This document shows positions 9,910 through 41,412 of a stretch of 64,000 nucleotides of DNA, piece by piece (within the stretch, counting starts at the first letter, position 1; each line of letters starts with the position of its first letter). Source of the DNA: an uncultured Bacilli bacterium (GTDB taxonomy: Bacteria; Bacillota_I; Bacilli_A; RF39; UBA660); contig CAKORJ010000001.1 in NCBI GenBank assembly GCA_934101575.1, positions 541,972-605,971 on the forward strand. Reading direction: 5' to 3'. The notes under the pieces are model-generated. The model saw only the letters and a list, made by a program, of their open reading frames with translations, was not told where the DNA came from and did no database searches. Made by a program: the position numbers and the translations under genes.

Positions 9910-12513
9910 TTAATTTATTTTTATGTGTTGTTGGTCGTATTTATAGTTGTGTAATACTTCTTCGGATGTTAATGCTTTTGTGTAAACTTTAGCACTATAA
10001 GTATTCATGTTTATTGCGCTTGTTGTACCACTTCCACTATAAATTTGTGCTTTATTTATACCTAGGTTTCCTATGTTCGAGGTATATTCATAAGATCCTC
10101 CTATTGAGGTTGACTCTTTTACTTTTATTCCGTTTATGTATGATGTTAATTTATTGTTTGTTACGTCATTTACCATTGTAAAGTTTATTATTTTAGTTGG
10201 TGCTGTGTGTTCATTAAAGTCAGCCCCTGCTAGCCCTGAAGTTGTTCTTATGCCGGCATAGACTTTCATTTGATTTGCTTTACTGTTTTGCCAGAATATT
10301 GCTTGACCACTATAGTATGCTCCTCCTATAAGGACTCCTGTGTTACCGTATGTGGTATTAGTGTATGGGACACTGTTTGCCATCATTGTTATTGATAATG
10401 TACTATTTGTTGTAGGAGTTAGTACTGATGAAAGTGGCATGCTTGATGTTACTGTTGTACTTGGAAGTAATAAATTATTTGTTTTCCATGTTCCAGATGA
10501 TATTGTTCCATTGTATCCTGTTCCGCTTAAATCTTTCCAAGAGGATAATACTGTTAAATGATTACTTCCTGAGTTTGCATAACCATCATACCAAAGTTTT
10601 AGATTTTCTTGGACATAACCGTTTATGTTTTCTGTATAAGCATTTATTCTTCGACCATTTGAATCTTGAATATTTGCTTCATCTATTACTTGAGTAAATG
10701 TTTTATTATCACTTGATACGGATGTTACTGAATCATAATATGTTCTTACATCTCCAAAATAGTTCCATACTGCTATTTCATCTAAATCATATGTCTCTTC
10801 TAAATCTATTGTTACACACTGATTATTTGTGTATGAACTGGCATTGGCCCAACTAGAATAAGTTATATCTCCATCTGTTATTCTTGAATATGGGTGTGTA
10901 CTACTTTCTGCGGTTGTTCCTGTTGCTGTTTTGCCTTTTGCTACGTTTACTCCGTCTTTTATGGCTTGTATTTCAAGCCAATGATTTTGATTATTAGCAG
11001 TATTATAACTAATACAATCTTTTATATATCTGACATTGTTTAATTTTGTTGTTCTTTTTTTAGGTTTTGTATCTACATATGTGATTTTTGCATAACCATC
11101 TCCGGTATTTTCTCCTTCTAGCATTTTTCCTCCGACAAAGTATTTGCCACTATAATGAATTGTTTGATTAGTATGAGTTATAGTAGTACTTTCCTTAACA
11201 GAATTTACTCCGGCATATCCACTTATGTAGGAAGACCCTCCGGATGCTGACCATGTTCCGTTTGAAAGTCCAGATGATCCTGATGCTCCATAATATCCTG
11301 ATCCTCCGCCTGAACCACTTCCTGTTGTAGCACTTGCGTTTGATGCTCCTCCAGCCCCACCTTTTCCAAATGATCCAGCTTCGCCATTTGATTGGGCACC
11401 ACTATATTTTGTTGGCGCTGCTCCTCCACTTGTTTGTGTTCCTGGATTACTTAAGTATTGTTGGTAAGTGGAAAATATGGTTTTCGTTCCATATAATGTA
11501 CCACCATATCCTAATGTATAACCACTACCGCTATCTCCTTCTGCACCGCCTCCGGCTACCATTATTCTACTTATAAGAGATTCTGTGTTATCCCAAGATC
11601 CTCCTTTTAATCTTATATCTGTAGCACTTCCACCTGTTCCACCACAAATTCCACTTTTTGCAGGTTTTGCTACTCCTCCACCATTAAATTCATACCCACT
11701 TGTTCTACAATTTGTATCTGGTCTTGTGCCTTTTCCTCCGACGTAAATATATATCTTTTCTCCGGCTTTTAAGTATATATAACCACTTGTTTTAGCTCCT
11801 CCACTATCATATCCTCCGGTTGTTTGTTCATATCCTGCACCACCACCTAGTTCTACATAATAGTAACCATTTCTTGGAACTGTATACTCTTGTGGTTCTC
11901 CTGTATAATTGAAAGTTTTTGCACTATCTTTTGTTTCCATGCTTTCTGGTCTTTGTTCTGCTTCTATTCTTAGTTTTAAAAATGCCTTATAATCCTCAAG
12001 TTTTGATATCTCTTCTTCTTTTGATTTATCTAACCATATTCTAAGTTTATAATTTAAAACTTCGTTTTTATATATGATATCACTATCAATTATATTCTTT
12101 ACTTTTTCTAAGGACATTGGTCCATATTCTTCACCATTTATTTCAAGTCCTACTTTTATATATTTTGTGTCTAATACTTTTCCTGTATAAGTACTTGGTA
12201 CTTCATTTAGTAACTTTAAATCGTATTTTGCTGGGTAGCTACCGGTGTTTTCTATTTTAAATTCATAGATATCTTCTTGTAACAAGCCTTCTTCATCACC
12301 CATAATAGATATTTTTTTATTGATTGTTTCGTAGTTTTCGGTTAGTTTTAACTCTATGCTTCCTGTTTTTATTATTTGTTCATTTGTATCTTGATTATTT
12401 CCTTTTAATAGAGCAAATGATGTTCCGGTTATTAAAGATAAGATTCCTATTAGGACTATACTTAGACTTATTATATATTTCTTTTTATTTATTTCTTTTT
12501 TTATCTTAATCAT
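9910..12513 (-). CDS. large secreted multidomain surface protein with four parts: SipW-cognate-like signal plus TasA/camelysin-like N-domain, Gly_rich domain, F5/8 type C (discoidin) domain, and LamG/ConA-like lectin domain
   Basis: 867 aa. Signal ...LSLITGTSFALLKGN. N-domain paralogous to that of the 38227-41412 protein (SIELKL.., MGDEEGLLQE, YKLRIWLD). FNYTGEPQEYTVPRNGYYYVELGGGAGY... Gly-rich block. Discoidin-like WLEIQAIKDG...CVTIDLEETYDLDEIAVWNYFGD. C-terminal LTSEEVLHNY LamG-type ending. Confidence 0.6.
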   Translation of the reverse strand: MIKIKKEINKKKYIISLSIVLIGILSLITGTSFALLKGNNQDTNEQIIKTGSIELKLTENYETINKKISIMGDEEGLLQEDIYEFKIENTGSYPAKYDLKLLNEVPSTYTGKVLDTKYIKVGLEINGEEYGPMSLEKVKNIIDSDIIYKNEVLNYKLRIWLDKSKEEEISKLEDYKAFLKLRIEAEQRPESMETKDSAKTFNYTGEPQEYTVPRNGYYYVELGGGAGYEQTTGGYDSGGAKTSGYIYLKAGEKIYIYVGGKGTRPDTNCRTSGYEFNGGGVAKPAKSGICGGTGGSATDIRLKGGSWDNTESLISRIMVAGGGAEGDSGSGYTLGYGGTLYGTKTIFSTYQQYLSNPGTQTSGGAAPTKYSGAQSNGEAGSFGKGGAGGASNASATTGSGSGGGSGYYGASGSSGLSNGTWSASGGSSYISGYAGVNSVKESTTITHTNQTIHYSGKYFVGGKMLEGENTGDGYAKITYVDTKPKKRTTKLNNVRYIKDCISYNTANNQNHWLEIQAIKDGVNVAKGKTATGTTAESSTHPYSRITDGDITYSSWANASSYTNNQCVTIDLEETYDLDEIAVWNYFGDVRTYYDSVTSVSSDNKTFTQVIDEANIQDSNGRRINAYTENINGYVQENLKLWYDGYANSGSNHLTVLSSWKDLSGTGYNGTISSGTWKTNNLLLPSTTVTSSMPLSSVLTPTTNSTLSITMMANSVPYTNTTYGNTGVLIGGAYYSGQAIFWQNSKANQMKVYAGIRTTSGLAGADFNEHTAPTKIINFTMVNDVTNNKLTSYINGIKVKESTSIGGSYEYTSNIGNLGINKAQIYSGSGTTSAINMNTYSAKVYTKALTSEEVLHNYKYDQQHIKIN

Positions 12514-12726
12514 CTCTTTTGCTCCTTTTTATTATACATAAATATTTTATAATAAAAATTATAGTTTTTCAAGAAGAAAAGACAAGATAAAACTTATCCT
12601 GTCTAGAGAAATCAATCATATGTCACACTTTTGTTATAAAAATACCATTTTATATATTTACATAATTGAGCTTATATTCTTCTACTATTTGATTTGAGCT
12701 TTAAAAATCTAGAACTTTCCTATAAG

Positions 12727-12756
12727 ATAAAAAAAGCAGCAAATATTATTTGCTAA
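12727..12756 (-). terminator. rho-independent terminator of recA (hairpin AGCAAATA-TATTTGCT plus U-run, overlaps stop)
   Basis: Inverted repeat agcagcaaatattatttgct with A-run 12727-12735 on the plus strand. Confidence 0.55.
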
Positions 12757-13750: not shown

Positions 13751-13774
13751 GTGTAATCCTCCCTATCTGTATCC

Positions 13775-13803
13775 ATCATACAACAAGTTTTAGGACTTGT
13801 CAA
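13775..13803 (-). promoter_or_regulatory. sigma-A-type promoter of recA (-35 TTGACA, 17 bp, -10 TATGAT)
   Basis: Minus-strand sequence TTGACAagtcctaaaacttgttgTATGAT about 25 nt upstream of the AGGGAGG RBS. Confidence 0.6.
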
Positions 13804-13812
13804 TAGTTTTTG

Positions 13813-13826
13813 CAAACATTTGTTTG
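13813..13826 (-). promoter_or_regulatory. putative LexA/SOS (Cheo-like) box upstream of recA
   Basis: 14-bp palindrome CAAACAAATGTTTG (AAAC-N4-GTTT) just upstream of the -35. One mismatch per half-site versus GAAC-N4-GTTC. Confidence 0.3.
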
Positions 13827-13904: not shown

Positions 13905-13913
13905 AGTTGAAAT

Positions 13914-21505: not shown

Positions 21506-21532
21506 TAATAAAAAAGTCTTATTTAAGACTTC
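21506..21532 (-). terminator. rho-independent terminator of the DUF4116 protein gene
   Basis: AGTCTTAAATAAGACT hairpin plus U-run on the minus strand, overlapping the stop. Confidence 0.5.
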
Positions 21533-23762
21533 TTACTTTGTGATATATCTTTTGTATTAAGTTTTTTTTTGGTTTTGGATCATTATTATCACTAGTTGCT
21601 TGTGTTTGTGATAATTCTTGTGTTATCTCTTCTTTTAGTTTTTCTGGTATATAATTTATTGCACGTGCATCTTTTTCTAAGGCTGCTAATGCTATTTCTT
21701 TATCTATTATCTCTTCTGGTATGTATTGTATAGTCATTAGCCAAAATTCATGTTTAATTGCTGCTTTAGCTATTTCCTTATCTATTATTTCTTTAGGAAT
21801 GAATTCTAATGCATCTCCATATCTTTGTACTGCTGTTAAAGCTACTTCTTTGTCTATTAGCTCTTTTGGAGCATATTTTATAGCAAATCCCCTATTTTTA
21901 ACTGCAATTAATACTATGTCTTTATTTATTAGATTTTTTGGAACGTATTCTAGTGCTCTTCCATCTTCCTTAAGTGCTGCTATAATTATGTCTTGATCCA
22001 TTAATTTTCTTGGTACATATTTTAATGTAAGTCCATATCTTTCTACTGCTGTTAGAGCTATTTCTTTATCCATTATCTCTTTTGGTACATATTTTATGGC
22101 TTCTGATTCTTTTTTAATTGCTTCTAATGCTAATTGTTTAGTTATTAGTTCTTTTGGTACATATTCTAAGGCGGTACCACGTTGTTTAATTGTTGCAAAT
22201 AATATATCTTTATCTATTAGTTCTTTGGGAATAAATTTTATTGTTTCCATATATGATTCTATTGCTGTTAGAGCTATATCTTTGTTTATTAGTTTTTTTG
22301 GAAAAAATTCTATTGCACCTTTATTTTGATTTAGTGCTTCAAGAGCTATTTCTTTATCTATTAACTCTTCTGGTACATATTCTAATGCTCGGCCACTTTT
22401 CTTTACTGCTATTAAGGCCATTTCTTTATCTATTATTTCTTTTGAAACGCACTTTAAAAACCAGCTTCTTTCTCTTACTAAATTCATTGCTAATTCTTTG
22501 TCTTCTATTGCTCCTTCTGCTAGATAACTAATTCCAGGGCTTCCTATTTTATTGAAGAATAGTATTAATTTTTTATCCTTAAGATTTGGTGTTGTTCTTT
22601 TTAATTTATTCTCTTTCATTTCTGTTAATCTTGGATCTCTTTGCCATCCCATCGGCCATACGGGGTCATCAATTTCATATATAAATTTTATATCTTCTTG
22701 TGTTAATTGTTTATTACTTTCATACTTTGTATATACGTATGTTATCATTTGGGCATCTTTTACTCTTCTTTTATAATGTCCTGCATCTTTAAAGTTTTCT
22801 AACTTTTTAGCAATTACATCTTCAAAATGTGGTTCTATATTTTGATCATTGGCTACTCCTCTTATTTCTGCTATTTTATTTTTGCCTTCCATTCTTATTG
22901 CAAGTCTTGGAATTGTAGCTTTACCTTCTTCGTCATAAGTATAGTATACATAAAAGTCTCCGTCTTTAACTTGCTTTTTACAAGTTTCTTCCCCGGCTGT
23001 ACACCATCCTGTATTTTTACCTTGAAGTGATTTATATAATTCTTGGTAATTATCTCCTTGTTCATACTTTATCCATTTTCCTTTTGTTTCTTCGCCAAAG
23101 TTGTTTTCTCTTTTATCTTTTAACTGAATTGTGTAAAGTTTGAAGAAATTACCATTCTTTACTAATTGTTCTAGTTGTTTGTCATCTATTTCTTCTTTAT
23201 TTATTTCTTTTATTACTAAATCTATTGATTTAGAAAGTACTTCTCTATCAAGTTCTGGGAATGGTGCAATTGTTGTTTTGCTTCTTTTGTTATAAATTCC
23301 TTTATTTGTATCATAATTTCCTATAGTTAACATTCCTTGAAATGCCCAATATTTCGCCCAGGTTGGATAAAACTTAGCATCTTCACTTGTAAAGTAGTCA
23401 ATCCATTCATCTAGAGATTTCCTTTGGTCTTCTATTATTAAGTTTTTTTGTTCTTCTTTTTGGAATTCAGTCATATGAATACCATATTGATCGAACTGTA
23501 CTTTATCTAAATAATTTATGTAACTTTCTGGAATATCTTCTTCTTTTATTACATATTTATCATAATAAAAATCTTTTAAAACATTTATTCCTGTATCTGT
23601 CTTATGATTTATTGCCTTTTCATGTACTCTTTCAAGTCTATCAATATATTTCTTTACTGCCTCATATTTATTATCACTTTTTGTACTTGAATGTTTTACA
23701 CTTTCTTCGTTATATAATTCTTTATATAGTTTTAATAAAAACTTTTCTCCTTCATAGTTCAT
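21519..23762 (-). CDS. hypothetical protein with unknown ~390-aa N-domain and about 12 tandem DUF4116-type repeats
   Basis: 747 aa. C-terminal half is 22-aa units of the form (I/L)DKEIAL.A(V/L)K..G.AL.YVP..L. N-domain contains NTGWCTAGEE and has no recognised fold. No signal peptide. Confidence 0.55.
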   Translation of the reverse strand: MNYEGEKFLLKLYKELYNEESVKHSSTKSDNKYEAVKKYIDRLERVHEKAINHKTDTGINVLKDFYYDKYVIKEEDIPESYINYLDKVQFDQYGIHMTEFQKEEQKNLIIEDQRKSLDEWIDYFTSEDAKFYPTWAKYWAFQGMLTIGNYDTNKGIYNKRSKTTIAPFPELDREVLSKSIDLVIKEINKEEIDDKQLEQLVKNGNFFKLYTIQLKDKRENNFGEETKGKWIKYEQGDNYQELYKSLQGKNTGWCTAGEETCKKQVKDGDFYVYYTYDEEGKATIPRLAIRMEGKNKIAEIRGVANDQNIEPHFEDVIAKKLENFKDAGHYKRRVKDAQMITYVYTKYESNKQLTQEDIKFIYEIDDPVWPMGWQRDPRLTEMKENKLKRTTPNLKDKKLILFFNKIGSPGISYLAEGAIEDKELAMNLVRERSWFLKCVSKEIIDKEMALIAVKKSGRALEYVPEELIDKEIALEALNQNKGAIEFFPKKLINKDIALTAIESYMETIKFIPKELIDKDILFATIKQRGTALEYVPKELITKQLALEAIKKESEAIKYVPKEIMDKEIALTAVERYGLTLKYVPRKLMDQDIIIAALKEDGRALEYVPKNLINKDIVLIAVKNRGFAIKYAPKELIDKEVALTAVQRYGDALEFIPKEIIDKEIAKAAIKHEFWLMTIQYIPEEIIDKEIALAALEKDARAINYIPEKLKEEITQELSQTQATSDNNDPKPKKNLIQKIYHKVRSLK
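21600..22565 (-). repeat. ~66-bp tandem coding repeats (DUF4116 units), divergent copies
   Basis: Periodic atctattat / ttttggtacatat motifs at the DNA level, matching the 22-aa protein periodicity. Confidence 0.6.
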
Positions 23763-23852: not shown

Positions 23853-24641
23853 CTATTTTCTTGCTCTTCTACTTCCACTTTCGCTTTGATTACTATTAGC
23901 ATTTACATAATCTATATAGTTTTGATGTTTTTGATAGTGGAATGGGCTTAGGTATATCCTATCTCCTTCGACTATCATTCCATGATCTTGGGCATAAACA
24001 TCGGTTGGTTTTTCTTTTTTTGTTAAATCTAGCTTTTTTATTGTTTTTTGACTTTCTGGACTTCCTTGCCACTTATCATATTTGTTAAAATAATCTAGTT
24101 GTTCTTCTAAACTTTTAGTCTCTACTTCCCATGGTAATTCCATTTCATAATAATTTGGATTTTCACATTCTTGATAGCAACCACAGTAATTTAACAAAAA
24201 TTCATCTTCTGTTACATAGGCCTTATTGTGTGGTACATCTTGCATTTTAAATTTTTGTGCTAATTCTAACAATTTTTGTTGTCCTTCTTTTCCAACACAG
24301 TTTACTCCAAAGTTTATACACCCTTTATGATATGAAAATTTTGTTATTCCTTCGCCTGATAAGTTTTTATATATTTGTTTATTTTCTTCGGAAAGTGATT
24401 TTTCTTCTATTTCTATCCAACATTCTCCCTCATTTAAATGATCACTAACCATGAATGTATAAATATTTTTATTCCATAATTCTTCACATGCTGGTAAACA
24501 TTCCTGAATAATATATCTTGTTGGGTTGTTTTCTACTATTTCTTGTGATTCTCTACTTACTTCATTATAATCATCATTTTCTGGCAAAAATCCTTTTTGT
24601 TCTAGTTCGATTGCCCATTCACTTTTTTTATTTTGTCCCAT
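23853..24641 (-). CDS. hypothetical Cys-rich protein (12 Cys), no recognised domain
   Basis: 262 aa. Long ORF with AT-rich but coding-like composition. CxxC-like pairs (CLPACEE, CGCYQEC). Confidence 0.4.
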   Translation of the reverse strand: MGQNKKSEWAIELEQKGFLPENDDYNEVSRESQEIVENNPTRYIIQECLPACEELWNKNIYTFMVSDHLNEGECWIEIEEKSLSEENKQIYKNLSGEGITKFSYHKGCINFGVNCVGKEGQQKLLELAQKFKMQDVPHNKAYVTEDEFLLNYCGCYQECENPNYYEMELPWEVETKSLEEQLDYFNKYDKWQGSPESQKTIKKLDLTKKEKPTDVYAQDHGMIVEGDRIYLSPFHYQKHQNYIDYVNANSNQSESGSRRARK

Positions 24642-30427: not shown

Positions 30428-32044
30428 TTATGTGGTTATTATGAGGCGAGAGGACTTGTCAGAACCAGCATTACCATTGCTGCAATTTGAGTAAAACGCC
30501 CCGGCATTTGCACCATTGCTATAGCCACAACTATGTAGGAACCAAGGGTAAGTCGAGTCCGCAAGGTAGGAGTAATCGCTATACCATCCAGCTAAACCTT
30601 TGTACACTTCTTTGATTCCATCACCCAATTTGCTTCTTGTTAATTCATAACTTGTACCATAACTATATTTATCATAGTATTTATTATTTGGATATGCTAC
30701 TCCTGTATATGATGTATAATTACCAGAGTCATATACTTTTCCTGTGTATCCAGAATTAGATGAAGTTTTATATCCACTCATCATTGTTGTTCCATCATTA
30801 CTTACAATATTTGCCATTGTATATTCATCTGCTCCTCCACTCATATCATATACTCCATATATATTATGCGTTGTTGAGGCAACTTTACTCATATCTTTTG
30901 TTGTACTTTTTGTATTAGTATTATAATCAAGTAAATATCCATCATATGTGTAAAACCCATAAGTATTATATTGTGTTGTTGATGTCTGATCTGTATATAC
31001 TGTATTTATTGCTGTTTTTCCTCCTGGTGCTCCTCCACTTCTTCCTGTATAATAACTAGAACTATTGTTTATATTAACTTCACTACAAGTACCATCTGTA
31101 CATGTTCCATATTTAGAGTGTGATAAGTAGGCTACTGCTCCCCATTCACTATTCTTTATCATATGAGTATCTGTATTCGTACTAAATCCATAGCTATTAC
31201 CACTATTTTTCATGCTTATTATATTTGTTTCAAAACTACTTACTTTTTGATTTCTTAAACTACTTAAATTTGGTTTTGTTGTAATACTGCTTATTGTTCC
31301 TGTTAGTTCAAATTTACCTACCCAGAATCCTTTTATTTCTTCGTTACCAAATGTAAATGCTGGATGTGTATATGTTTTATTATTACAAGTACTATCTGTA
31401 CAAGTTTCATTTGTTTCTTTTAATTTACATGTTTCTGAAGGGTCCCCTTTTGTTCCACTTATTGCATCTTCACATATTATTTCTCCGGTTTTATCTGTAC
31501 TGCTTTCCCATGTTATTTCTATTTCTTGCTCATTACTAGTTTTTGTACCATTCTCATTATAATTCCATACTTTATATTTATATCTTGGTATCCAAACCTC
31601 CATTGTAAGTATATCATCCATTGGTATTTCTGTCCCTACACTTGCTGATTGATATTTGCTTCTATTAGTAGAGCTAACTGTTACACTATTCGCCCATTTC
31701 TTTTCACAATAATCATACCAATTATTACTTTTATTAGTACTATCTGCTTTTTTCCATGTTTCTGTATTTTCATCATAATATACTGGTATCATAGCACTAT
31801 CAAGTACTGGTGCATTTGGTTTGTTTTGATTACATGTATCTACTGTAGCTTCTATTGTTTTTGTTCCTATTATTTTGTCTGTGAATAGTGCAAATGATGA
31901 GTTTATTTTATATGATATGAATCCTACTGCTATGAGGAATACTATACATATAATTGATAACTTTACTTTATTAAAATCTTTTATATTTTTGTTTAAGAGT
32001 CTATAGATCGCCTCCCCCTTCAGGCGAATATTTGTCCGTTTCAC
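30428..32044 (-). CDS. secreted Cys/Ser/Thr/Tyr-rich protein with SipW-cognate-like signal and C-terminal FGE-sulfatase/C-type-lectin-like domain ending in a DGR-variable-region-like segment
   Basis: 538 aa. GTG start with AAGGAG RBS. Signal ...ISYKINSSFALFTDK. FGE-like motifs GFWVGKFELTG and SEWGAVAYLSHSKYG. C-terminus HSCGYSNGANAGAFYSNCSNGNAGSDKSSRL. Both gene ends are GC-rich relative to the genome. Confidence 0.6.
   Translation of the reverse strand: MKRTNIRLKGEAIYRLLNKNIKDFNKVKLSIICIVFLIAVGFISYKINSSFALFTDKIIGTKTIEATVDTCNQNKPNAPVLDSAMIPVYYDENTETWKKADSTNKSNNWYDYCEKKWANSVTVSSTNRSKYQSASVGTEIPMDDILTMEVWIPRYKYKVWNYNENGTKTSNEQEIEITWESSTDKTGEIICEDAISGTKGDPSETCKLKETNETCTDSTCNNKTYTHPAFTFGNEEIKGFWVGKFELTGTISSITTKPNLSSLRNQKVSSFETNIISMKNSGNSYGFSTNTDTHMIKNSEWGAVAYLSHSKYGTCTDGTCSEVNINNSSSYYTGRSGGAPGGKTAINTVYTDQTSTTQYNTYGFYTYDGYLLDYNTNTKSTTKDMSKVASTTHNIYGVYDMSGGADEYTMANIVSNDGTTMMSGYKTSSNSGYTGKVYDSGNYTSYTGVAYPNNKYYDKYSYGTSYELTRSKLGDGIKEVYKGLAGWYSDYSYLADSTYPWFLHSCGYSNGANAGAFYSNCSNGNAGSDKSSRLIITT
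30431..30600 (-). other. candidate diversity-generating-retroelement variable region (VR)-like segment, GC-rich, at the 3' end of the CDS
   Basis: About 45-50 % GC versus about 25 % background. C/G-ending codons, multiple AAT Asn codons. Protein motif matches the CLec-fold DGR VR consensus (GGSW..NGANAG.F..N.N....N.G.RL). Confidence 0.4.
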
Positions 32045-32109: not shown

Positions 32110-35100
32110 TTAGTTTATTTCTTTTATAAGATCTTGACTTATAGAATATAAATATGTTTTTGCTTTTTTATGTGTCTTTGCTTCTATGTAATCTTTATAA
32201 CCTTTTAATTGTTTTTTGTAGTTTTGATCACTTATATCTGATAACTTATAATCTATTATGTCTATATTATTTTCATGTTCTAACATTAAGTCTATTATTC
32301 CATGATATGTACTACTTTCTTGTTCATAGAAGAATTCATGTTCTTTTATTATCTTTGCTTGTTTTATATTTTGAAAAAGATCATGTTTTAATAGTTTTTT
32401 TATGTGGTGGTTCTCTGATATTAAGAAATCTTCTGTTTCAAATAGATAATGAATATATGTACCATATTGCATGTTTTCTAATTCTTCTTTTGTTTTTAAT
32501 TTAGTATTTATTTTTGAGAATTTACTTTCTGTTATAGGATTATTTGGTATTTCTATACTTTTATGTTTTACTTTTTCTACTTTGTCTGTTAGATTTTTTA
32601 AATTTTTTGATTTGAATAGATTATAGTCTTTGGATAGGTTCATTTCTTCTTGATCTATATTTTTTATATTTATATCAAACTCATCTTTTACTGTATTTAT
32701 TATATCTAAGAATGATTTATATTTTAATCTTGTATCACTGTTTACTAATTGTTCGTCATTATATATATCTTCGTTTAATGGACTTACAAATATCATTTTT
32801 TCTTTAGCTCTTGTTACTGCGACGTATAATAATCTTATTTTTTCTGATATTTCTTCTTGCATGTATTCTTTTTTCATTAGATTTTGGGTAAATAATGTGC
32901 CTACTCCTTCTTTGTAATATGGTGTCATTATTCCATATTTGTTATCATACTTAAATTTTTCTGTAATATCCCTTATATTAAATGTTTTGTATAGTCCGGA
33001 GTAATAACATACTGGGAACTCTAAACCTTTTGATTTATGGATATTCATTATTTTTACTGAGACGTTATCTTTAGTATTTGTTTTATATTTTATTTCTTCA
33101 TCACTTTCTATCATTTCTGTTAAATATTTTGCAAAGTCATATGGTGTGTATTTTAAATCTTCTAATGATGAGGATATTTGCATTAAATTTGCTATTCTTA
33201 TTAATGTTTTATCTATATCGTGATATGTAAGGCTTTTTTTATAAAAGTCAAAGTCTTTTATTATTCTTGTTAAGAATTCATGACATGAGATATTATCTAA
33301 ATCTTGTGCTATTTCTTTTGCTTTTTTATATAGCTCTGTTTCTTTAAATGTATTATTTTTAAATGTTTCTATTATTGTACTATCGGATTCATTATATAAG
33401 AAACTTCTTTTTATTGATGTGTAAAAATATTTGAATTCTTTATCTTGTTTATTCTGTTTTATTTTTATGATTAAATTTGCTACGTTTTTGATTATGAATA
33501 TGTCATATGATGTTGTTAATTTTTCATCTTGTAAGGCTAATAAAGGTATTTTTTCGTATTCAAATATTTTTTTGTACAGATCAAATTCTGACCCTCGGTC
33601 CATGATAATGCAGAAGTCTTTGGGTGTTACCTGTCTTAGTATTCCTGTTTCTTTATCTATTACCATGTAATTGTTATTTATTTTATTTTTTATATCTTGT
33701 GCTATTATAAATGCTTCTATTTCGTTTTTATTATAATCTTTTATATCTTGGGGATTATAATTATATATTTCTAAGTTATTATTTATTTCTTTTTTGTTTT
33801 GTTTTTCGTACATTAGATTACCAAATATCATTTGATGGGTCTTTTTATAGTCTGCTCCTCCTAGGAAGTTGTCCATTATTTTATTAAACATTTTATTTAT
33901 ATCTTCTAATACTTCACTTCTTGATCTAAAGTTTTTTAATAAATCTATTTTTATTCCTTTTTCTCCTTTGCTGTAGGTATTATATTTGTTTTTAAAGATT
34001 GTTGGATTAGCGTTTCTAAATCTATATATTGATTGTTTTATGTCTCCGACCATGTATACATTATTATTTTCTATTTGATTTATAAATATTTCTTGGAGGT
34101 CATTTGTATCTTGATATTCATCGACCATTATTTCATTATAATAATACTTTATTTCATCTCTTACTTCTTTGTTTTCTTTTACTATGTTTATGGCCATTTT
34201 TGATATATCTATGAATTCATATGATGAGTTTTCTTGTTTATAACTGTTTATTTTTTGATCTAGTTTTTCTATTATATCTATTATTACTTTTGCATATGTT
34301 TTTGTGCTTAAATATGTTTCTTTTAGTTCTTGTTCTGATCTATATTTTGTTAGGTTTTTTAGATCTTTTAGAAGTTCATTTATTTTTTCTCTTTCTTCTT
34401 TTGTATTTTTTACTATTCTTGGTAGTTTTACTTCTATGTTTTTCTTTATTTCATCATATGTTTTAGAATTTATTAGTTTTGATAGAGCTTCTATATATTC
34501 ATTTGCTTTTTTATCTTCTTCTTTTGTTAGGATTTCCTCATATAGATTTTTTATTTTTTGATGGATTTCTTTTATTTCTTTTAGATACTCTTGTATTATA
34601 TTATTTATATATGTTTCATTATAGAAGTCTTCTATATAACTTTTTAGATATTCTTGTTTGTTATATTTTTGTTCTAGACTATTGTTGATATTTAGTATTT
34701 GTTTTTTGATATCTTTATCGTCTTTTAAACAGAAATCATTTATTAGTTTTAGGAAGTCTTTGTTTTCTTCGTTGTATAAGTCTTCAAATATTTGATCTAG
34801 TTCTTCTTGTTTTTTTATATTTATTATTGATGATGAGACTATTCCTATGTTTTTTGATATGTTTAAGAGATAATGATATTTTTTTACTATTGATAAGGCA
34901 TAGCTATCAAATGTTGTTATGTAGGCACTATCGAGGTAATCTAGTTGTTTTGAGAGGCTTTCTTCTTTTTTGATTGCTTTTCTTATTCTATCTTTCATTT
35001 CTCCGGCTGCTTCGTTTGTGAATGTTAAGACTAGGAGTCTATTTACGTCTATTCCATCTTTTAGTTTTCTTATTACTCTGGCTGTTAATACTGCGGTTTT

Positions 35101-35190
35101 TCCTGAACCAGCGCCAGCGGATACTATTATGTTTTTTCCTTCTTTATCTATTGCTTCTTGTTGTTCTTTTGTCCAATTAGGCATTTTCAA
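32110..35190 (-). CDS. addA: ATP-dependent helicase/nuclease subunit A (AddA/RexA)
   Basis: 1026 aa. UvrD-type helicase motifs (AGAGSGKT, TFTNEAAGEM). C-terminal RecB-type PD-(D/E)xK nuclease (GIIDLM...IIDYKLS...QLKGY). Confidence 0.85.
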   Translation of the reverse strand: MKMPNWTKEQQEAIDKEGKNIIVSAGAGSGKTAVLTARVIRKLKDGIDVNRLLVLTFTNEAAGEMKDRIRKAIKKEESLSKQLDYLDSAYITTFDSYALSIVKKYHYLLNISKNIGIVSSSIINIKKQEELDQIFEDLYNEENKDFLKLINDFCLKDDKDIKKQILNINNSLEQKYNKQEYLKSYIEDFYNETYINNIIQEYLKEIKEIHQKIKNLYEEILTKEEDKKANEYIEALSKLINSKTYDEIKKNIEVKLPRIVKNTKEEREKINELLKDLKNLTKYRSEQELKETYLSTKTYAKVIIDIIEKLDQKINSYKQENSSYEFIDISKMAINIVKENKEVRDEIKYYYNEIMVDEYQDTNDLQEIFINQIENNNVYMVGDIKQSIYRFRNANPTIFKNKYNTYSKGEKGIKIDLLKNFRSRSEVLEDINKMFNKIMDNFLGGADYKKTHQMIFGNLMYEKQNKKEINNNLEIYNYNPQDIKDYNKNEIEAFIIAQDIKNKINNNYMVIDKETGILRQVTPKDFCIIMDRGSEFDLYKKIFEYEKIPLLALQDEKLTTSYDIFIIKNVANLIIKIKQNKQDKEFKYFYTSIKRSFLYNESDSTIIETFKNNTFKETELYKKAKEIAQDLDNISCHEFLTRIIKDFDFYKKSLTYHDIDKTLIRIANLMQISSSLEDLKYTPYDFAKYLTEMIESDEEIKYKTNTKDNVSVKIMNIHKSKGLEFPVCYYSGLYKTFNIRDITEKFKYDNKYGIMTPYYKEGVGTLFTQNLMKKEYMQEEISEKIRLLYVAVTRAKEKMIFVSPLNEDIYNDEQLVNSDTRLKYKSFLDIINTVKDEFDINIKNIDQEEMNLSKDYNLFKSKNLKNLTDKVEKVKHKSIEIPNNPITESKFSKINTKLKTKEELENMQYGTYIHYLFETEDFLISENHHIKKLLKHDLFQNIKQAKIIKEHEFFYEQESSTYHGIIDLMLEHENNIDIIDYKLSDISDQNYKKQLKGYKDYIEAKTHKKAKTYLYSISQDLIKEIN

Positions 35191-37558
35191 TCCCCCTTAA
35201 ATAAGATAGATCTTTATCTTCTTTTATTAGTATTTCGTCTTTTGTTTCTTTGAAACATATATCACTATAAGAACAGAACTTACATCCTAAATTTGCTTTT
35301 TCTGTTCTCTTTGGTGATATGTTAAAGTTACATTCTGTTATTTCTTTTATTGCTTCATTTATTTTTTGATCTGTTATGTCTATTAGTGTATTTATTTCTT
35401 CACTGTTTAATATTTTTGCGAATCTGTTAAAATGTCCATCTTTTGTTAGTTTCATTGATTTTATAAATTTACTTTCTTTATATGTTTTATCAAATTTATG
35501 TAATACTTCTTCATCATTATTTGAGTATCCATATAAAAGGAGGCTTTCTTTTTTTTGTTCTTCTAAGGTCTTTTTTTCGTCTATTTGATATGGTCCTGAT
35601 AATATTCTTTGGAGATAGAATCCTGCAAATTCTATGTTTTCTAGTTTTTTGCTTTTTTCTGCTAAGTACAGATATACTGGTAATTGCATAGATAATCCAT
35701 AAGGAACAAATCCTAAGTTTATGTCTGTTTGTCCTGTTTTATAATCTATTATTGCTACGACTGTTTTATTATTTTCTTTTTTATACATTACTTTATCTAT
35801 AAAGCCTTTAAATGTTACTGTTATGTCTCCTTTTTTTACTACTTCGACTCTTTCTTCAAATAACATATCTGTTAATTCAGTGTTTTCTAAATGATTTAGT
35901 ATTGTTTTATGAATAAAGAATAATTCTTTTGATAGTTTGTTTATGAAGAATCTTTCTTTTTTTGATAGGTTTCTTTCGTTTGTATTAATGAATTTTGTTA
36001 TTAAATCATTTATATTTTCTTTGTCTTTTAATGATTTTTCTAATACATAATGGAACATACTTCCTATATAAGCTTCAAATTTTTCTTCATATATATCTAG
36101 TTTTAAAATATGGGATAAATAGTATCTAAATGGGCATTTATAGAAGGAATCCATACTTGAATATGATAGATTGAATTTATTATCTAGATATTCTTTTAAG
36201 ATGTTTTTATCTACTTTTTTATATTTATTATCATATGTATTGTATTCTATATCATTATAGCTGTTATATAACAATTTTAAGTTTTTGTCTATTTCTCCGG
36301 TTTTAGAATATTTATCTAAGTATTTTGTTAAGTTTATTTTATCAGAAACAGTGCTATAACTTGTAGTGTAATCTATTTCTTTTTTTTCTACTTCTAGTTT
36401 TAAATCACTTATTAGGTTTGAGGGATAATAAGTATTTGTTATAGATGTATTTTTATATGTTATTATTAAGTTCTTTATACTTTCTATGGCTTTTATTGTA
36501 TCTTGTTTTTCTCTTTTATTCTTTTCTAGTGTTGTATCTAATATTAGGTTTTCTTTAATACTATCTGTTATAAAATCTTCATCTTTATGTATTTTTGGTA
36601 TTTTATTTTGATTAAATGAGGGCATAAATACATAAGTACTTTCTGATATATAATCTTCTAGGTAATCTATTATTTCTATTTCATTTTGATAAGTATCTTT
36701 TTTTAGATAAGTGTTTTTAAAATCATATGTTATCATTTCTTTTACTATTTTTTGATCAGAAAAATCTATATATTTATTTACTATTTTTGTTATCTGGTCT
36801 AGTATTTTGTTATTTTTGTACTTTTCTGTTAATTTGTTTATTATTTCTTCTATAGATCCTGTTTCATTTAAGTAATCCTTGGCTATTTGTGTTGAAATTA
36901 GTTTACTATCTTTTAGGGATACTCTTAGATTATACATTTCAAATACTCTAGTTAATGTATCATAATAGTCTCCGTCTATATTAGTTAGTTTTATGTCTTT
37001 TATACTTATATTTTGTTCTAATAATTTTATAATGCTTCTAGCTATAAATTCTACTTCTTCTTCTAGGGTGTTAAATTCATAAACTTTGTGTTTATAGTTT
37101 TGTTTTGGTTTTTCTATTATTTCTACTTCAGTATATTTTTTTAGACTTTCTATTAGATTCTTTTCTAATTTTGAAAAACTACTATATCTATAAAATATTA
37201 TTTTTTTATTTTGTATGTATTTTATAAATAAATCATCTTTTATTAAAAGGTTGTTACTTTCTAAATCTTGTTTTAGTTTTGATAATGTATTTAGTTTATC
37301 ACTTTTATATTCTTTGCTTTCTACATAGTACATGTTTTTTAAATAGATTCCTGCTATTTCTCTATTTAAATTATAATTTTTCATTAAATAATATATTGCT
37401 TTTTCATCATATGTAAAATAATATTTTTTTATTAGTTCTTGTTTATCTAAAAAGTTAATTTTTAATAATCTATTTTCTTTATTTAACTTTTTTAATATAT
37501 TTATTTTATTACTATAATTTGTAATTATTAGTGTATTATCTTTTAAAAATGTTTCCAT
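35177..37558 (-). CDS. addB: ATP-dependent helicase/nuclease subunit B, RexB-type (no Walker A) with C-terminal nuclease and 4-Cys Fe-S motif
   Basis: 793 aa. Overlaps addA by 14 nt. C-terminal CPFRYYLSHILKL ... ECNFNISPKRTEKANLGCKFCSYSDIC. N-terminus lacks a P-loop. Confidence 0.75.
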   Translation of the reverse strand: METFLKDNTLIITNYSNKINILKKLNKENRLLKINFLDKQELIKKYYFTYDEKAIYYLMKNYNLNREIAGIYLKNMYYVESKEYKSDKLNTLSKLKQDLESNNLLIKDDLFIKYIQNKKIIFYRYSSFSKLEKNLIESLKKYTEVEIIEKPKQNYKHKVYEFNTLEEEVEFIARSIIKLLEQNISIKDIKLTNIDGDYYDTLTRVFEMYNLRVSLKDSKLISTQIAKDYLNETGSIEEIINKLTEKYKNNKILDQITKIVNKYIDFSDQKIVKEMITYDFKNTYLKKDTYQNEIEIIDYLEDYISESTYVFMPSFNQNKIPKIHKDEDFITDSIKENLILDTTLEKNKREKQDTIKAIESIKNLIITYKNTSITNTYYPSNLISDLKLEVEKKEIDYTTSYSTVSDKINLTKYLDKYSKTGEIDKNLKLLYNSYNDIEYNTYDNKYKKVDKNILKEYLDNKFNLSYSSMDSFYKCPFRYYLSHILKLDIYEEKFEAYIGSMFHYVLEKSLKDKENINDLITKFINTNERNLSKKERFFINKLSKELFFIHKTILNHLENTELTDMLFEERVEVVKKGDITVTFKGFIDKVMYKKENNKTVVAIIDYKTGQTDINLGFVPYGLSMQLPVYLYLAEKSKKLENIEFAGFYLQRILSGPYQIDEKKTLEEQKKESLLLYGYSNNDEEVLHKFDKTYKESKFIKSMKLTKDGHFNRFAKILNSEEINTLIDITDQKINEAIKEITECNFNISPKRTEKANLGCKFCSYSDICFKETKDEILIKEDKDLSYLRGIENA

Positions 37559-37611
37559 AAATCATACTCCTTATAGATATTATATCATTTTGTTTTTAAG
37601 AAAAAAAGAAT

Positions 37612-38208
37612 TTAAGCTTCTTTGCTTGAATTCTTTTTGGTTTCTTTTGTTTTATTTTCTGTTGTTTGTTTTTCTTTATTTTTGTATGGAATTCCTTCTT
37701 TTTTAGTATCTTTTTTAGGTTTTTGGGAGTTTATTTTTAGAGTTCCTGTGAAACTATTACTATCAACTTGTTTTCCGTTATAGGTTATTGTTATTTTATA
37801 TGTATGAGTTTTTCCTGCTTGGATTGCTACGGAATTAAAGATTTTAGAATCTGCGGCGGGAACTTGAGATTTTCCTAAGGATGCGGCTCTATCTCCTTCA
37901 CCTTTTATTGTATATAATAATTTGTTTTGTTCTGTGAATGTATTTGATACTTTTAACCAAGATAGACTATATGTTTTTAAGTCTTTAGTTGGATTAGTAA
38001 CAGTTATTTCTTTTTCTGTGGTGTAAGATCCAGATGGGTTTTTAATTGTTATTTGATCTCCATCTTTATAAGTTATTTTTAAAGAGTTTACTTCAGTACT
38101 AGTATCTTTAGTACAGAAATAGATTCCTAATGCTATAGCAATAATTAATACTATAGTAATAATTATTAATAATATTTTATGTTTTTTAATAAAATTCATT
38201 TTAATCAT
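37612..38208 (-). CDS. small membrane-anchored beta-rich protein, possibly a TasA/camelysin-like domain paralog; co-oriented 18 nt downstream of 38227-41412
   Basis: 198 aa. N-terminal TM. Weak similarity of KNPSGSYTTEKEITVTNPT to ENTGSYPAKYDLKL of the larger paralogs. Lys-rich tail. Confidence 0.4.
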   Translation of the reverse strand: MIKMNFIKKHKILLIIITIVLIIAIALGIYFCTKDTSTEVNSLKITYKDGDQITIKNPSGSYTTEKEITVTNPTKDLKTYSLSWLKVSNTFTEQNKLLYTIKGEGDRAASLGKSQVPAADSKIFNSVAIQAGKTHTYKITITYNGKQVDSNSFTGTLKINSQKPKKDTKKEGIPYKNKEKQTTENKTKETKKNSSKEA

Positions 38209-38226
38209 TTCCTTTCTTTTTATATT

Positions 38227-41200
38227 TTAACTGGCTAGTGTGAATGATTTGCCATAATTAGGAGAAGCATATGTACTTGAGGAAGAACCATACCATTTAT
38301 ATGTTTCATTTGTTAGAGAACCTGTTGTTTTTGGTATAGTTACTGACCAGGTTGTAGCTTTAGAGCCTGCTGAATCAAACATATAACTCATATTTGTTAC
38401 ACTTGATGTATTCCAGTTTGATAAGTTTAAATTAAAGGTTGTGGAATTATAGCCTGCAGAATAAAACATATACTCCATATTTGTTACACTTGATACATCC
38501 CAGTTTGACAAATCTCCTATACTCCAGGTTGTGACTTTAAAGCCTGCTGAATGGAACATATGACTCATACTTACTACACTTGATGTGTTCCAGTTGGATA
38601 TATCTCCTATATTCCAGGTTGTGGCACTATTGCCTGCATAATAAAACATTTCGCTCATACTTACTACACTTGATGTGTTCCAGGTTGACAAATCTCCTAT
38701 ACTCCAGGTTGTGGCATTAGAGCCTGCTTTAAAAAACATCCTACTCATATCCGTAACATTTGATGTATTCCAGTTGGATATATTTCCTATATTCCAGGTT
38801 GTGGCACTATTGCCTGCATAATAAAACATATACTCCATATTTGTTACACTTGATACATCCCATTTTGACAAATCTCCTATACTCCAGGTTGTGGCATTAG
38901 AGCCTGCAGAATTAAACATTCCATACATATTTGTTACACTTGATGTATTCCAGTTTGATAAGTTTAAATTAAAGGTTGTGGAATTATAGCCTGCTTCACC
39001 AAACATATACCTCATATTTATTACGTTTGATACATCCCATTTTGATATGTCTCCTATTGTCCAGGTTGTGGCATCAGAGCCTGCATAATAAAACATCTCA
39101 CTCATATCTGTTACACTTGAGGTATTCCAATTTGATAAGTCTCCTATACTCCAGGTTGTGGTATTATTACCTGCAAAACCAAACATATAACTCATATTTG
39201 TTACACTTGATGTATTCCAGTTTGATAAACCTCCTATACTCCAGGTTGTGGCATTAGAGCCTGCAGAATAAAACATTCTATACATATTTGTTACTTTTGA
39301 TGCATCTAAATTTGTAAAATCTCCTTTTTCCATATTAGTTAAATTGGAAAACCAATCTGCTGTTGATATAGGAGTTATTTTCCGTCCTATTTCTACACTT
39401 TTTATTGAATATCGCTCATTTTCCCATAATTGTGTATTAGACATAACATATGAATTACTTTCACTCATAGCTTCATATTCATATGTTATTGCTCCATGTT
39501 TTTCTATATTACTATCTCTATTACCTAATGTTTCATTTATTATTAGTGTTCCATCTGTATATAAAGTTGTTACTGAATCTACAAATTTAACTGTACATGT
39601 TGTGTCATTTGTTACATTGCTTATTGTTAATATATTATTGTTTATTGTTCCATTTTGATTATTTGTGCAAGTTACTTTACCTATTGTATCTGATTTGGTT
39701 GGCACTAAATTAAATGTTCCATTTTTATTGTATTCAATTTGTTTCGTTGCATCTCCATTTATTGTTCCGTTTTGTACTATAACATTCACATTATATTTAT
39801 TTGTTTCCCATATTGCATATAAGTCTATTTGATCTTGTTCTTTTACTGTTTTTTCTAAATTTGTTAAATCACTTTCATCTTGATATTTTATATTTGTTTC
39901 ATTTTTATTTGTATTCCAACCTTTAAATGTGTAATGCTTTTTTATCCAATTATTTTTCTTTAATTTATTATTTTGCCCTACTGTGAATGTTGAGGTTTTT
40001 ATTCCGTTATTGTCATTTGATATTAGTTTTATATTTTTTATATAGGCTTTGTTTACTGCTGTAGTAGTTTCTAGTTTTTTTGTTATTGGAGAATTTTCAT
40101 CATCTTCTTGATAAGCAGCTGGTGCTCCGCTATTTGGATTATCAGTATAGGCAAATTCTATATAACGAGTTTCTTTTGGCAATGTTATTACTATTGGATT
40201 ATATTCCCCCTCAATTAACTCATTATGATTGATGGTTACAGAATCTAAATATTTAAACCCTTCTCCTGCTATAGTGATTTCTAATATTCCATATGTCATA
40301 GCACAATCAAATTCTAGCTGTTTTTCCTCAGATAAACTAATTTCTTTATACATCATTGATTTTATATATTCGTTTGCTAGTGATTTTGTATTTGATGTTT
40401 TTGAATATGATTGAGGTTCCCCTGATGAGGATGGTATATCTGAACTTTCATATACACCATTATTTAGTTGCCATTTATAAGGATTTTCACCATCCCCTGG
40501 ATAATAATCTACATCGATTGTTACATCTTCTTCTGTTCTTATTTCTTTGGTATTTGGATGATACTTAACTGTATATGTATTTGGATTCCATACTGCATAT
40601 AATGTTTTGTTTTGATCGTTTTGATTTTGTGTTAGATTGGTTGCTGTATTTTGATCTTGGTACTCTACTTCTCCATTATTTGTTGTTGACCAACCTTTGA
40701 ATGTGTATCCTCCTCTGGTAAAGGTATTTTTTCTTAAATTATTTGTTGTATTTTGATTGTATATGCTTGCTGCCATTTGTCCTTCTCCACCATTTGGACT
40801 ATAAGTTATAATATAACTTCCTTCGTTTTCTGTTGATCCTACTCCTATTTTGAATTTATATTGTTGTTTAGTGTTTTCATCCCATTCTTTTACTTGAACA
40901 TCTTGATCTATCCATACTCTTATTCTGTACTTATCTACTTGTGTATTATTTGTTTCGCTATGAATATTTACATCTTCATATAGGTTATAATTATCTAACT
41001 CACTTATTTTTAATGGTCCTAATATTTTGTTATTATCTGTATCTGTTAAATATATTTTTATTTGATCATCTGTTAGACTTGTGTATCCTGTATCTGTTTG
41101 TAGTTTTTCTATACTTAGTTTGTACCCTAGTTTCATATTAGAGCTTGATTTTGTTTCTACGGCAAAGTCAAATACATTACCTGTTCCTTCTTGAACCATT

Positions 41201-41412
41201 CCTTGTTCATCTGATATAGGTAATTGATTTTCTAAAGTTATTATTTCTTTGTTTGATTCTAATAGTTTTATTGATACATCTGTAGTACTTATGGTGTTAT
41301 CTTTTCCTATAAATGAATAATCAAAATATGCATAACTTGCTCCGACCAAAACTAATAACGCTACTAAAAGCATGGTTAGTCTTGGTAGCTTTGATTTATT
41401 TTTTATTTCCAT
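38227..41412 (-). CDS. large surface protein with three parts: SipW-cognate-like signal plus TasA/camelysin-like N-domain, two Listeria-Bacteroides (Flg_new) repeats, and about 11 tandem DUF285 (Mycoplasma/Listeria 26-30-aa surface repeat) units
   Basis: 1061 aa. Signal ...VGASYAYFDYSFIG. GYTFKGWSTTNNGEVEY and HYTFKGWNTNKNE motifs. C-terminal repeats TTWSIGDLSNWNTSSVTNMSYMF.AG.N. N-domain paralogous to the 9910-12513 protein. Confidence 0.65.
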   Translation of the reverse strand: MEIKNKSKLPRLTMLLVALLVLVGASYAYFDYSFIGKDNTISTTDVSIKLLESNKEIITLENQLPISDEQGMVQEGTGNVFDFAVETKSSSNMKLGYKLSIEKLQTDTGYTSLTDDQIKIYLTDTDNNKILGPLKISELDNYNLYEDVNIHSETNNTQVDKYRIRVWIDQDVQVKEWDENTKQQYKFKIGVGSTENEGSYIITYSPNGGEGQMAASIYNQNTTNNLRKNTFTRGGYTFKGWSTTNNGEVEYQDQNTATNLTQNQNDQNKTLYAVWNPNTYTVKYHPNTKEIRTEEDVTIDVDYYPGDGENPYKWQLNNGVYESSDIPSSSGEPQSYSKTSNTKSLANEYIKSMMYKEISLSEEKQLEFDCAMTYGILEITIAGEGFKYLDSVTINHNELIEGEYNPIVITLPKETRYIEFAYTDNPNSGAPAAYQEDDENSPITKKLETTTAVNKAYIKNIKLISNDNNGIKTSTFTVGQNNKLKKNNWIKKHYTFKGWNTNKNETNIKYQDESDLTNLEKTVKEQDQIDLYAIWETNKYNVNVIVQNGTINGDATKQIEYNKNGTFNLVPTKSDTIGKVTCTNNQNGTINNNILTISNVTNDTTCTVKFVDSVTTLYTDGTLIINETLGNRDSNIEKHGAITYEYEAMSESNSYVMSNTQLWENERYSIKSVEIGRKITPISTADWFSNLTNMEKGDFTNLDASKVTNMYRMFYSAGSNATTWSIGGLSNWNTSSVTNMSYMFGFAGNNTTTWSIGDLSNWNTSSVTDMSEMFYYAGSDATTWTIGDISKWDVSNVINMRYMFGEAGYNSTTFNLNLSNWNTSSVTNMYGMFNSAGSNATTWSIGDLSKWDVSSVTNMEYMFYYAGNSATTWNIGNISNWNTSNVTDMSRMFFKAGSNATTWSIGDLSTWNTSSVVSMSEMFYYAGNSATTWNIGDISNWNTSSVVSMSHMFHSAGFKVTTWSIGDLSNWDVSSVTNMEYMFYSAGYNSTTFNLNLSNWNTSSVTNMSYMFDSAGSKATTWSVTIPKTTGSLTNETYKWYGSSSSTYASPNYGKSFTLAS
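38295..39315 (-). repeat. near-identical 78-90-bp tandem coding repeats (DUF285 units)
   Basis: Recurring strings such as atactccaggttgtggcattagagcctgc at multiple positions (about 38520, 38700, 38880, 39150, 39238). Confidence 0.7.

Follow-up and report, generated by a model that had tools for sequence, protein, structure and literature searches.

Do the large secreted proteins encoded on the minus strand of a small, mostly housekeeping region belong to one family, and how would they be held at the cell surface? The question is raised by a 64,000-nucleotide stretch (positions 541,972 to 605,971 of contig CAKORJ010000001.1, assembly GCA_934101575.1) from an uncultured Bacilli bacterium of the RF39 group. 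This stretch is referred to here as the window, and coordinates are positions within it unless another locus is named. An earlier note on this DNA had proposed that three genes, P1 (9910–12513), P2 (30428–32044) and P3 (38227–41412), and perhaps a fourth, P4 (37612–38208), encode paralogous proteins with SipW-cognate signal peptides and TasA/camelysin-like N-terminal domains (N-domains) fused to exchangeable adhesive tips. All four minus-strand open reading frames (ORFs) are present at exactly those coordinates, and the strings quoted from the translations (GTSFALL, SSFALFTD, ASYAYFDY, MGDEEGLLQE and ISDEQGMVQE, YKLRIWLD and YRIRVWID) are exact. P1 and P3 share a module that defines a large family, undescribed in the domain libraries searched, and their sequences mark them as predicted secreted surface proteins of modular build, from an uncultured gut Bacilli lineage that has a low GC content and is related to the Mollicutes. 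The modularity is real, while a TasA-like fibre role is plausible from the sequences but unproven and the SipW claim is unsupported by them.

The homology of the P1 and P3 N-domains was confirmed by BLASTP (28% identity over 134 aa, E 2e-6) and by a single family hidden Markov model (HMM), built from 155 members, that matches both proteins with E<1e-60 (1.8e-69 for P1 and 1.9e-64 for P3). P1 (867 aa) begins with a predicted signal peptide (residues 1–34; 12412–12513, minus strand) that has a K-rich n-region, a 17-residue hydrophobic h-region and the c-region TGTSFA. The N-domain (residues 35–195; 11929–12411), modelled as a beta-sandwich of approximately 10 strands, is followed by a glycine-rich domain (residues 214–479; 11077–11874) that matches ALK_LTK_GRD (PF12810) with an E value of 5.2e-31 and 108.9 bits. 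Further on, a discoidin-like (F5/8 type C-like) region (residues 545–625; 10639–10881) has a sub-threshold match to PF22633 (E 1.5e-4, 22.7 bits against a cutoff of 27.8), and the remaining C-terminal region is without assignment. Identical copies of P1 were found on 23 human-gut metagenome contigs, some of them from Hadza samples.

P3 (1061 aa) has the same plan. Its predicted signal peptide (residues 1–28; 41329–41412, minus strand) ends in GASYA, with cleavage predicted before YFDYSFIG, a stretch of alternating aromatic residues, and its N-domain (residues 29–198; 40819–41328) is homologous to that of P1. Flg_new (Listeria-Bacteroides) repeats follow (E 3e-10), the first of them at 40594–40815, and the protein belongs to the DUF285 family (PF03382, E 3.4e-93, 308 bits; TIGR02167, E 2e-42). 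The DUF285/PARCEL array occupies 38347–39302 and is made up of a 90 bp (30 aa) tandem repeat in 10.7 copies, which match one another at 76%. Within the array, strain variants that are otherwise almost identical to P3 have lost 30, 60 and 179 aa in frame, which suggests variation in repeat number, or assembly collapse. The modules that the earlier note had assigned stand in part: the glycine-rich domain of P1 and DUF285 in P3 were recovered, but discoidin in P1 and the FGE domain of P2 are sub-threshold, and LamG was not found at the P1 C-terminus, even at E<=1.

When the databases were queried with a word-indexed search, only 28 and 4 close relatives were returned, all metagenomic and unnamed. 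A profile built from the resulting alignment (A1) and run over 1.84 billion cluster representatives (50% identity clusters) matched 4,326 of them at E<=1e-3 and 1,726 at E<=1e-10. All 4,326 representatives are unnamed and come from metagenomes or metagenome-assembled genomes (MAGs), and none of the ten family clusters examined carries a source name. Among the best 150 matches the module is N-terminal in nearly all, starting within the first ~30 residues in all except two, in proteins that range from 83 to 1,710 aa. The N-domains of P1 and P3 have no match in Pfam-A or NCBIfam, and relatives have only scattered weak ones.

To judge from the sequence, the signal is likely to be cut behind A34 (P1) and A28 (P3), because a short h-region, a helix breaker at position −5 and small residues at −3 and −1 make up a type I signal-peptidase site. 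The textbook form of such a site is defined by the von Heijne −3/−1 rule. Both P1 and P3 have a tripartite signal peptide of the classical Sec type, the end of which, with the residues that follow it, is unusually conserved over thousands of relatives. Across the family, [ST]-[YFW]-A ends the hydrophobic segment in 133 of 147 representatives, and in 119 of those 133 a glycine stands two residues before the motif, at position −5. The consensus is G-x-[ST]-[YF]-A↓[IAVL]-[FLWY]-x-[YG]-[ST]-[FI], where the arrow marks the predicted cleavage, and positions +1 to +6 are conserved as well. The n-region has a net charge of approximately +3, the h-region a median length of 15 residues, and the uncharged span up to the alanine a median of 20 residues (5–95%: 18–23), compared with 21 in TasA and CalY. 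When the strict motif pattern was applied to 239 ORF segments of the window, only P1 and P3 fitted it. The motif in these two proteins is no chance match.

Structure prediction places a ~160 aa Ig-like beta-sandwich behind the signal peptide. An AlphaFold2 model of the mature P1 domain (residues 35–195, 66 sequences) is a sandwich of approximately 10 strands with a pLDDT of 89.4 and a pTM of 0.83; an earlier model, built with the signal helix, reached a mediocre pLDDT of 75 and matched known folds only weakly. What stands behind the N-domain varies widely across the family and includes ALK_LTK_GRD, DUF285/PARCEL, Flg_new, BspA-type leucine-rich repeat (LRR), discoidin (F5/8C), LamG and Ig-like modules; relative P0041, for example, carries Laminin_G_3 with an E value of 2.1e-36. 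An LPXTG-like signal was found in none of 110 long members, and a C-terminal hydrophobic segment in one of the 110, which is possibly an ORF-fusion artefact. The N-terminal module is thus the sole shared candidate for attachment. Of the proposal of a modular system with exchangeable tips, the modularity is strongly supported, but the fibre role attributed to it is plausible and unproven.

Among species-representative genomes, relatives were found in MAGs recorded as uncultured Bacilli, uncultured Tenericutes, Mycoplasma sp. CAG:611 and uncultured Erysipelotrichaceae. As far as seen, the family is confined to uncultured Mollicutes-related gut Bacilli. Two further records carry the titles Bacteroidaceae and Lachnospiraceae. 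Three loci (L007, L009 and L011) with close relatives of the P1 N-domain (60–72% identity) come from MAG records so titled, and these contigs were probably mis-binned from the Bacilli lineage.

Not all members carry a further module. MAG GCA_947628535.1 encodes at least ten members, and immediately behind its polC gene stands a tandem run of five short ones that consist of the N-domain alone. They are of two types that alternate A, B, A, B, A (locus L001, 16914–20586), and in a second genome, a sister MAG, an A, B pair is found at the same place downstream of polC (locus L003, 5638–7085). Type A has the signature 'VA[LI]A↓xYTWxYTS', and type B the signature 'TSYA↓MFSANLTG…TTGYVTL…FSFKLKIGATQ' along with a Cys-containing insert.

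The claim that the N-domain resembles TasA and camelysin was examined against 120 TasA/CalY proteins, collected with an alignment of TasA and CalY that was confirmed when retrieved proteins proved to be source-named TasA or CalY. With signal peptides included, hhalign joined the two families with a probability of 87.6% (E 3.5e-6). The alignment pairs, in the same order, the signal, the cleavage motif, 'TGxVxLxL' with 'AGTLDL', 'nalPmsD' with 'nLKPGD', and 'FdFxVxNxG' with 'kEFxlxNxG'. By eye the final strands are also alike (FLKLRIEAEQ and FKLKIGATQ in the family, LQFSFEATQ in TasA, LEWTFNANQ in CalY). When hhalign was given the mature parts only, the register was the same and the score of 21.0 was reached by one of 150 column shuffles (null 11.0 ± 2.2); the type-B subgroup scored 23.2. 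In addition, five of ten chosen relatives (P0164, P0177, P0155, P0143 and P0167) match Peptidase_M73 (PF12389) below threshold, with E values of 5e-4 to 2e-2 and 15–20 bits against a cutoff of 22.5. Their residues ~10–120 fall on profile positions 3–88 of 196 (17–75 in P0143). That such sub-threshold matches recur in one register supports, at the level of sequence, a remote kinship with TasA. In structure searches with Foldseek against the PDB, the weak top matches were ASH, PapD-like and MSP domains and chaperone-usher pilin domains (PapG pilin domain, FimF, PapA), and the archaeal TasA-like bundling pilin AbpA (7UEG) ranked sixth (E 0.012, prob 0.98, TMq 0.40). The enrichment of these matches, though they are weak, in donor-strand pilin domains supports a fibre role as far as the model goes.

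Several results weigh against kinship with TasA and are taken together here. Neither TIGR04088, the SipW-cognate model, nor PF12389 matched P1, P2 or P3 at E<=10, whether full-length proteins or N-terminal segments of 50–200 aa were used for the former, and neither did they match P4 at that threshold. Both models are present in the libraries, since some relatives do match: TIGR04088 gave weak matches in 3 of 103 (best E 0.0023) and PF12389 matched 2 of 103 at E<=1e-3. At E<=1, TIGR04088 did not match any of another ten relatives, among which were the type-B proteins that most resemble TasA. On the mature parts alone the hhalign match corresponds to a probability of 1.7% and a P value of 0.03, and the 'F-x-V-x-N-x-G' pattern is common in many Ig-like domains. 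Two family profiles of the N-domain had no match among PDB chains by sequence. Structure prediction, which the earlier note had suggested as a check, does yield an all-beta sandwich, but TasA is absent from the top 50 Foldseek matches against the PDB, where nothing reached E<=1e-3 or a TM-score of 0.5. Lastly, no tapA/sipW-like operon was found at the loci examined, where the genes stand singly among housekeeping genes. The resemblance is colinear, repeatable and sub-threshold, and much of it comes from the signal peptide together with the opening ~55 residues of the mature protein. Of the TasA/camelysin-like N-domain first proposed, what remains is this colinear sub-threshold resemblance in relatives, without an HMM match for the window proteins or a TasA by fold. 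Strict membership in TIGR04088 or PF12389 was not found for the window proteins, and a very distant kinship of the N-domain with TasA/camelysin is plausible from the sequences. We read the family as one of predicted secreted modular adhesins, which may possibly belong to the TasA superfamily.

The signal peptidase was considered separately. A motif of TasA and CalY, whose sequences were verified, reads [GT]-[ST]-x-A↓x-F-x-D and is fitted by SSFA↓LFTD of P2 and ASYA↓YFDY of P3; in P1 the site reads TSFA↓LLKG and lacks F-x-D, as do P1-type members generally (A↓ILKG). The designation 'SipW-cognate' found no support, as TIGR04088 does not match the window proteins and the site also fits the −3/−1 rule of any type I signal peptidase. 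No sipW was found in the window, as had been noted: no S24 or S26 peptidase was detected by Pfam among the main ORFs between ~8 and 62 kb, or by phmmer over all ORFs. In the ~340 kb of related loci (about 21), regular-expression and phmmer searches and the Pfam assignments of neighbouring genes likewise revealed no signal peptidase. The phmmer scan covered 19 genome loci with SipS and SipW queries, the neighbouring genes were those of six relatives, and the flanks read in related MAGs extended up to 20 kb.

With these results, the reading that we prefer, though we put it at somewhat below an even chance as a whole, is that the family forms TasA-like donor-strand fibres in which short paralogues would be the scaffold and P1 and P3 would display adhesin modules. 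The proteins would be exported by Sec, and a type I signal peptidase, either SipW-type or housekeeping, would then cut them behind S-[YF]-A. The newly exposed hydrophobic N-terminal segment, which in many members has aromatic residues at +2, +4 and +6, might then act as a donor strand as in TasA, and N-domains joined by such strands would make up a fibre or lattice at the surface. Short paralogues of types A and B would serve as its scaffold, which long ones such as P1 and P3 would decorate with different binding modules. In TasA itself the donor strand is formed by residues 28–38 right after the cleavage site, via F29, I32 and F39, and TapA supplies a similar strand (PMC9674648). The archaeal TasA-like protein AbpA is processed in the absence of an adjacent dedicated peptidase, by a generic signal peptidase (PMC9245690), and for this reason the missing adjacent sipW is not decisive. 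A bolder form of the proposal, which we think rather unlikely, is a fibre independent of both SipW and chaperones, with a shaft of alternating short paralogues into which dozens of long paralogues, encoded singly here and there among housekeeping genes, would plug by means of their N-domain, each with another adhesin. If true, it would give these cells a mix-and-match 'adhesin on a fibre' surface, with Gly-rich/discoidin, PARCEL, LRR and lectin-like tips and without LPXTG on these proteins.

The strongest competitor, possible although we doubt it, is that these are ordinary secreted adhesins, cut by the housekeeping type I peptidase, whose N-domain is Ig-like, unrelated to TasA, and serves as a non-covalent envelope anchor or stalk without any fibre. 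In other Firmicutes, CWB2, SLH and GW modules hold proteins on the envelope in this way, through a wall polymer, a lipid or a partner protein. One conserved domain joined to variable functional domains is the classic signature of wall anchoring, and the long members have no other anchor (LPXTG in 0 of 110). The general −3/−1 rule accounts for the cleavage site, every TasA and SipW HMM test on the window proteins failed, and the fold matches are generic ones (Ig-like, PapD-like, ASH) with TM-scores below 0.5. However, strong conservation of positions +1 to +6, with alternating aromatics, is unexpected for a mere spacer, and N-domain-only paralogues in tandem suggest a structural, self-associating role. 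A TasA-unrelated stalk also leaves the colinear sub-threshold matches to PF12389 and TasA/CalY without explanation.

We regard as unlikely an uncleaved signal anchor, in which the hydrophobic segment would stay in the membrane, G-x-S-Y-A and the aromatics would be an interface motif and the N-domain a juxtamembrane stalk. This arrangement draws on the N-terminal segment being the only hydrophobic segment and the only candidate anchor, on the first AlphaFold2 model, which shows residues 2–28 as a single helix, and on the habit of Mollicutes-related lineages, which often display proteins via N-terminal or lipid anchors. It has to contend with an h-region that is short (median 15 residues) and in P3, at only ~12 residues, too short for a stable membrane anchor, with the helix-breaking glycine at −5 and the small residues at −3 and −1, and with a length that is that of TasA and CalY signals. 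The near-invariant S/T at −3 and A at −1 (133/147) are best explained by recognition by a peptidase. A strictly SipW-dependent matrix of bona fide TIGR04088/PF12389 proteins, with SipW encoded elsewhere in the genome, would be a special case of the TasA-like reading and is quite improbable: SFA↓LFTD in P2 and SYA↓YFDY in P3 do resemble TFA↓FFSD of camelysin and TWA↓AFND of TasA, and a few relatives weakly match one or other model, but the defining HMMs do not match the window proteins, no SipW-like ORF occurs in the window or the ~340 kb of related loci, and the genes lie outside any tapA-sipW-tasA-like operon.

Comparison of the family with known systems revealed partial likenesses to several. 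With TasA/CalY (PF12389) it shares a signal peptide of equal length and layout, a cleavage region of the form [ST]-aromatic-A↓x-aromatic, a first strand of the pattern 'G-x-[VL]-x-L' that lies ~15 residues beyond the cut, a strand reading 'F-x-[FVL]-x-N-x-G', a final strand ending in A-x-Q, an all-beta domain, and the presence of several paralogues per genome, short tandem ones included. It differs in that the similarity is sub-threshold, fold searches do not return TasA, and a tapA-sipW operon is absent here. Furthermore, the ~160 aa domain is usually joined to 200–1,500 aa of adhesin-like modules, whereas the retrieved TasA/CalY homologues are ~190–375 aa in total, and the hosts of the family are uncultured Mollicutes-related gut Bacilli. 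Proteins of the SipW-cognate class (TIGR04088) likewise have a tripartite signal with a conserved motif across the cleavage site. P2 (SFALFTD) and P3 (SYAYFDY) fit T-x-A-x-F-x-D, which we take to be the pattern of that class, but the HMM does not match P1, P2 or P3, P1-type members read A↓ILKG, and no SipW-type peptidase was found nearby.

The N-domain model comes closest in structure, if only weakly, to AbpA (7UEG), the PapG pilin domain, FimF and PapA, and all of those systems polymerise by donor-strand complementation. They are set apart by TM-scores of 0.28–0.40, E values of at least 1e-3 and no detectable sequence similarity, and usher or chaperone genes are not present here. The repeats of DUF285/PARCEL lipoproteins of Mycoplasma and Listeria (PF03382, TIGR02167) and of BspA-type LRR adhesins recur as C-terminal modules of P3 and many relatives. 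The Mycoplasma members of that repeat family are lipoproteins, while P3 appears to be exported behind the family signal and N-domain. Clostridioides difficile has many paralogous cell-wall proteins that differ in their functional domains but have the conserved CWB2 module in common. The likeness to the present family lies in this shared module with variable partners; there is no sequence or HMM relation to CWB2, and the module here directly follows the signal peptide.

The lineages that carry the family are common, uncultured inhabitants of the human and animal gut with reduced genomes, and we know of no account of how they attach to hosts, mucus or other microbes. A single module at the N-terminus, common to more than 4,000 clusters of proteins (50% identity) and joined to a range of adhesin-like domains, is probably their main route of surface display. 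As the module is invisible to current domain databases, defining the family would let these proteins be annotated. If both the link to TasA and donor-strand assembly are true, TasA-type fibres would reach a new branch of the Firmicutes, with a new architecture in which fibre subunit and adhesin are fused; if they are not, the module is still a new candidate surface-anchoring domain.

P2 (538 aa) had been counted among the carriers of the shared N-domain, and this was abandoned: it has no significant BLASTP similarity to P1 or P3 and no family HMM match, and shares with them only the signal and cleavage motif. Its N-terminal region (residues 1–52; 31889–32044, minus strand) has the hydrophobic segment and the SSFALFTD motif of a family-type signal (…NSSFA↓LFTD), and the remainder consists of 'PNAPVLDSAMIPVYYDE…WKKAD' and an FGE-like module. 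The match of that module to FGE-sulfatase (PF03781; C-type-lectin-like) is sub-threshold, at 19.4–19.8 bits against a cutoff of 23.3. Residues ~50–538 can be aligned to the module that ends at least 25 proteins with an upstream N-domain, among them P0065 (70% identity), P0041, P0048 and P0050. In those full members the junction runs '…last strand of the N-domain…PNAPVLD..MIPVYYDE..WKKAD', and in P2 the signal is followed by ~20 residues (KIIGTKTIEATVDTCNQNK) and then directly by the shared junction. Given this recurrence of its body in full members, we conclude from the sequence that P2 is probably the descendant of a full member that has lost the N-domain core.

P4 (198 aa; 37612–38208, minus strand) lies 18 bp downstream of P3, and its hydrophobic segment at the N-terminus is followed by a small domain rich in beta structure and by a Lys-rich tail. 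The suggestion that it may be a fourth member was not borne out, as it lacks the SYA motif, BLASTP similarity and a family HMM match; a jackhmmer link to the family covers model positions 4–60 only, which is the hydrophobic segment. Its match to Pilin_N (E 0.0028) is sub-threshold and lies over the hydrophobic N-terminal segment (residues 12–71). A type IV prepilin reading was rejected, as the conserved motif follows the hydrophobic segment and does not precede it. One clear homologue of P4 was found, at locus L012 (804–1337) of another MAG, beside a family member that carries a P2-type module. P4 could be an accessory or anchoring partner.

The GC content is approximately 28% over the window, and the gene content is mostly the housekeeping set of a Bacilli-type organism. 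It includes genes for RNase Y, RecA, RecU, PBP1, a LytR-type protein, RNase J, phosphoketolase, FemX, an AddAB-like helicase/nuclease, Ddl, trigger factor, GreA and TsaBDE. The AddA-like gene (32110–35190; 1026 aa, UvrD-type helicase domains) and the AddB-like gene (35177–37558; 793 aa, PD-(D/E)XK nuclease) overlap by 14 bp, and both products are, we assume, markedly shorter than Bacillus AddA and AddB. The earlier description of the family genes as bracketing addAB is right for P3 and P4 upstream and P2 downstream, but P1 is 18 kb distant, in the interval that separates recA from the RNase Y gene. Elsewhere too, long family members stand singly between housekeeping genes: between recA and rny in the window (9910–12513), between rnj and rplU (L030, 7399–8376), after feoAB and before an AI-2E transporter gene (L001, 10001–10588), and after hup and before a DUF1292 gene (L003, 10001–10975). 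These are single insertions and form no operons or islands. A scan for promoters and terminators between 29.8 and 42.8 kb gave the same result as shuffled sequence and is uninformative in such AT-rich DNA.

Three further observations concern other parts of the window. At 21519–23762, a cytoplasmic-looking protein of 747 aa has at least eight DUF4116 repeats (E 6.6e-71) after a long N-terminal region without assignment. Downstream of the RNase J gene, an ORF at 23853–24641 encodes an acidic, Cys-containing protein of 262 aa with no Pfam match and no signal peptide; in the genome represented by L030, a family member fills the slot after rnj. Finally, the local GC content rises to 0.36 at 10001–12000, compared with ~0.28 elsewhere. 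This peak falls on the P1 glycine-rich domain and probably reflects codon composition, not foreign DNA.

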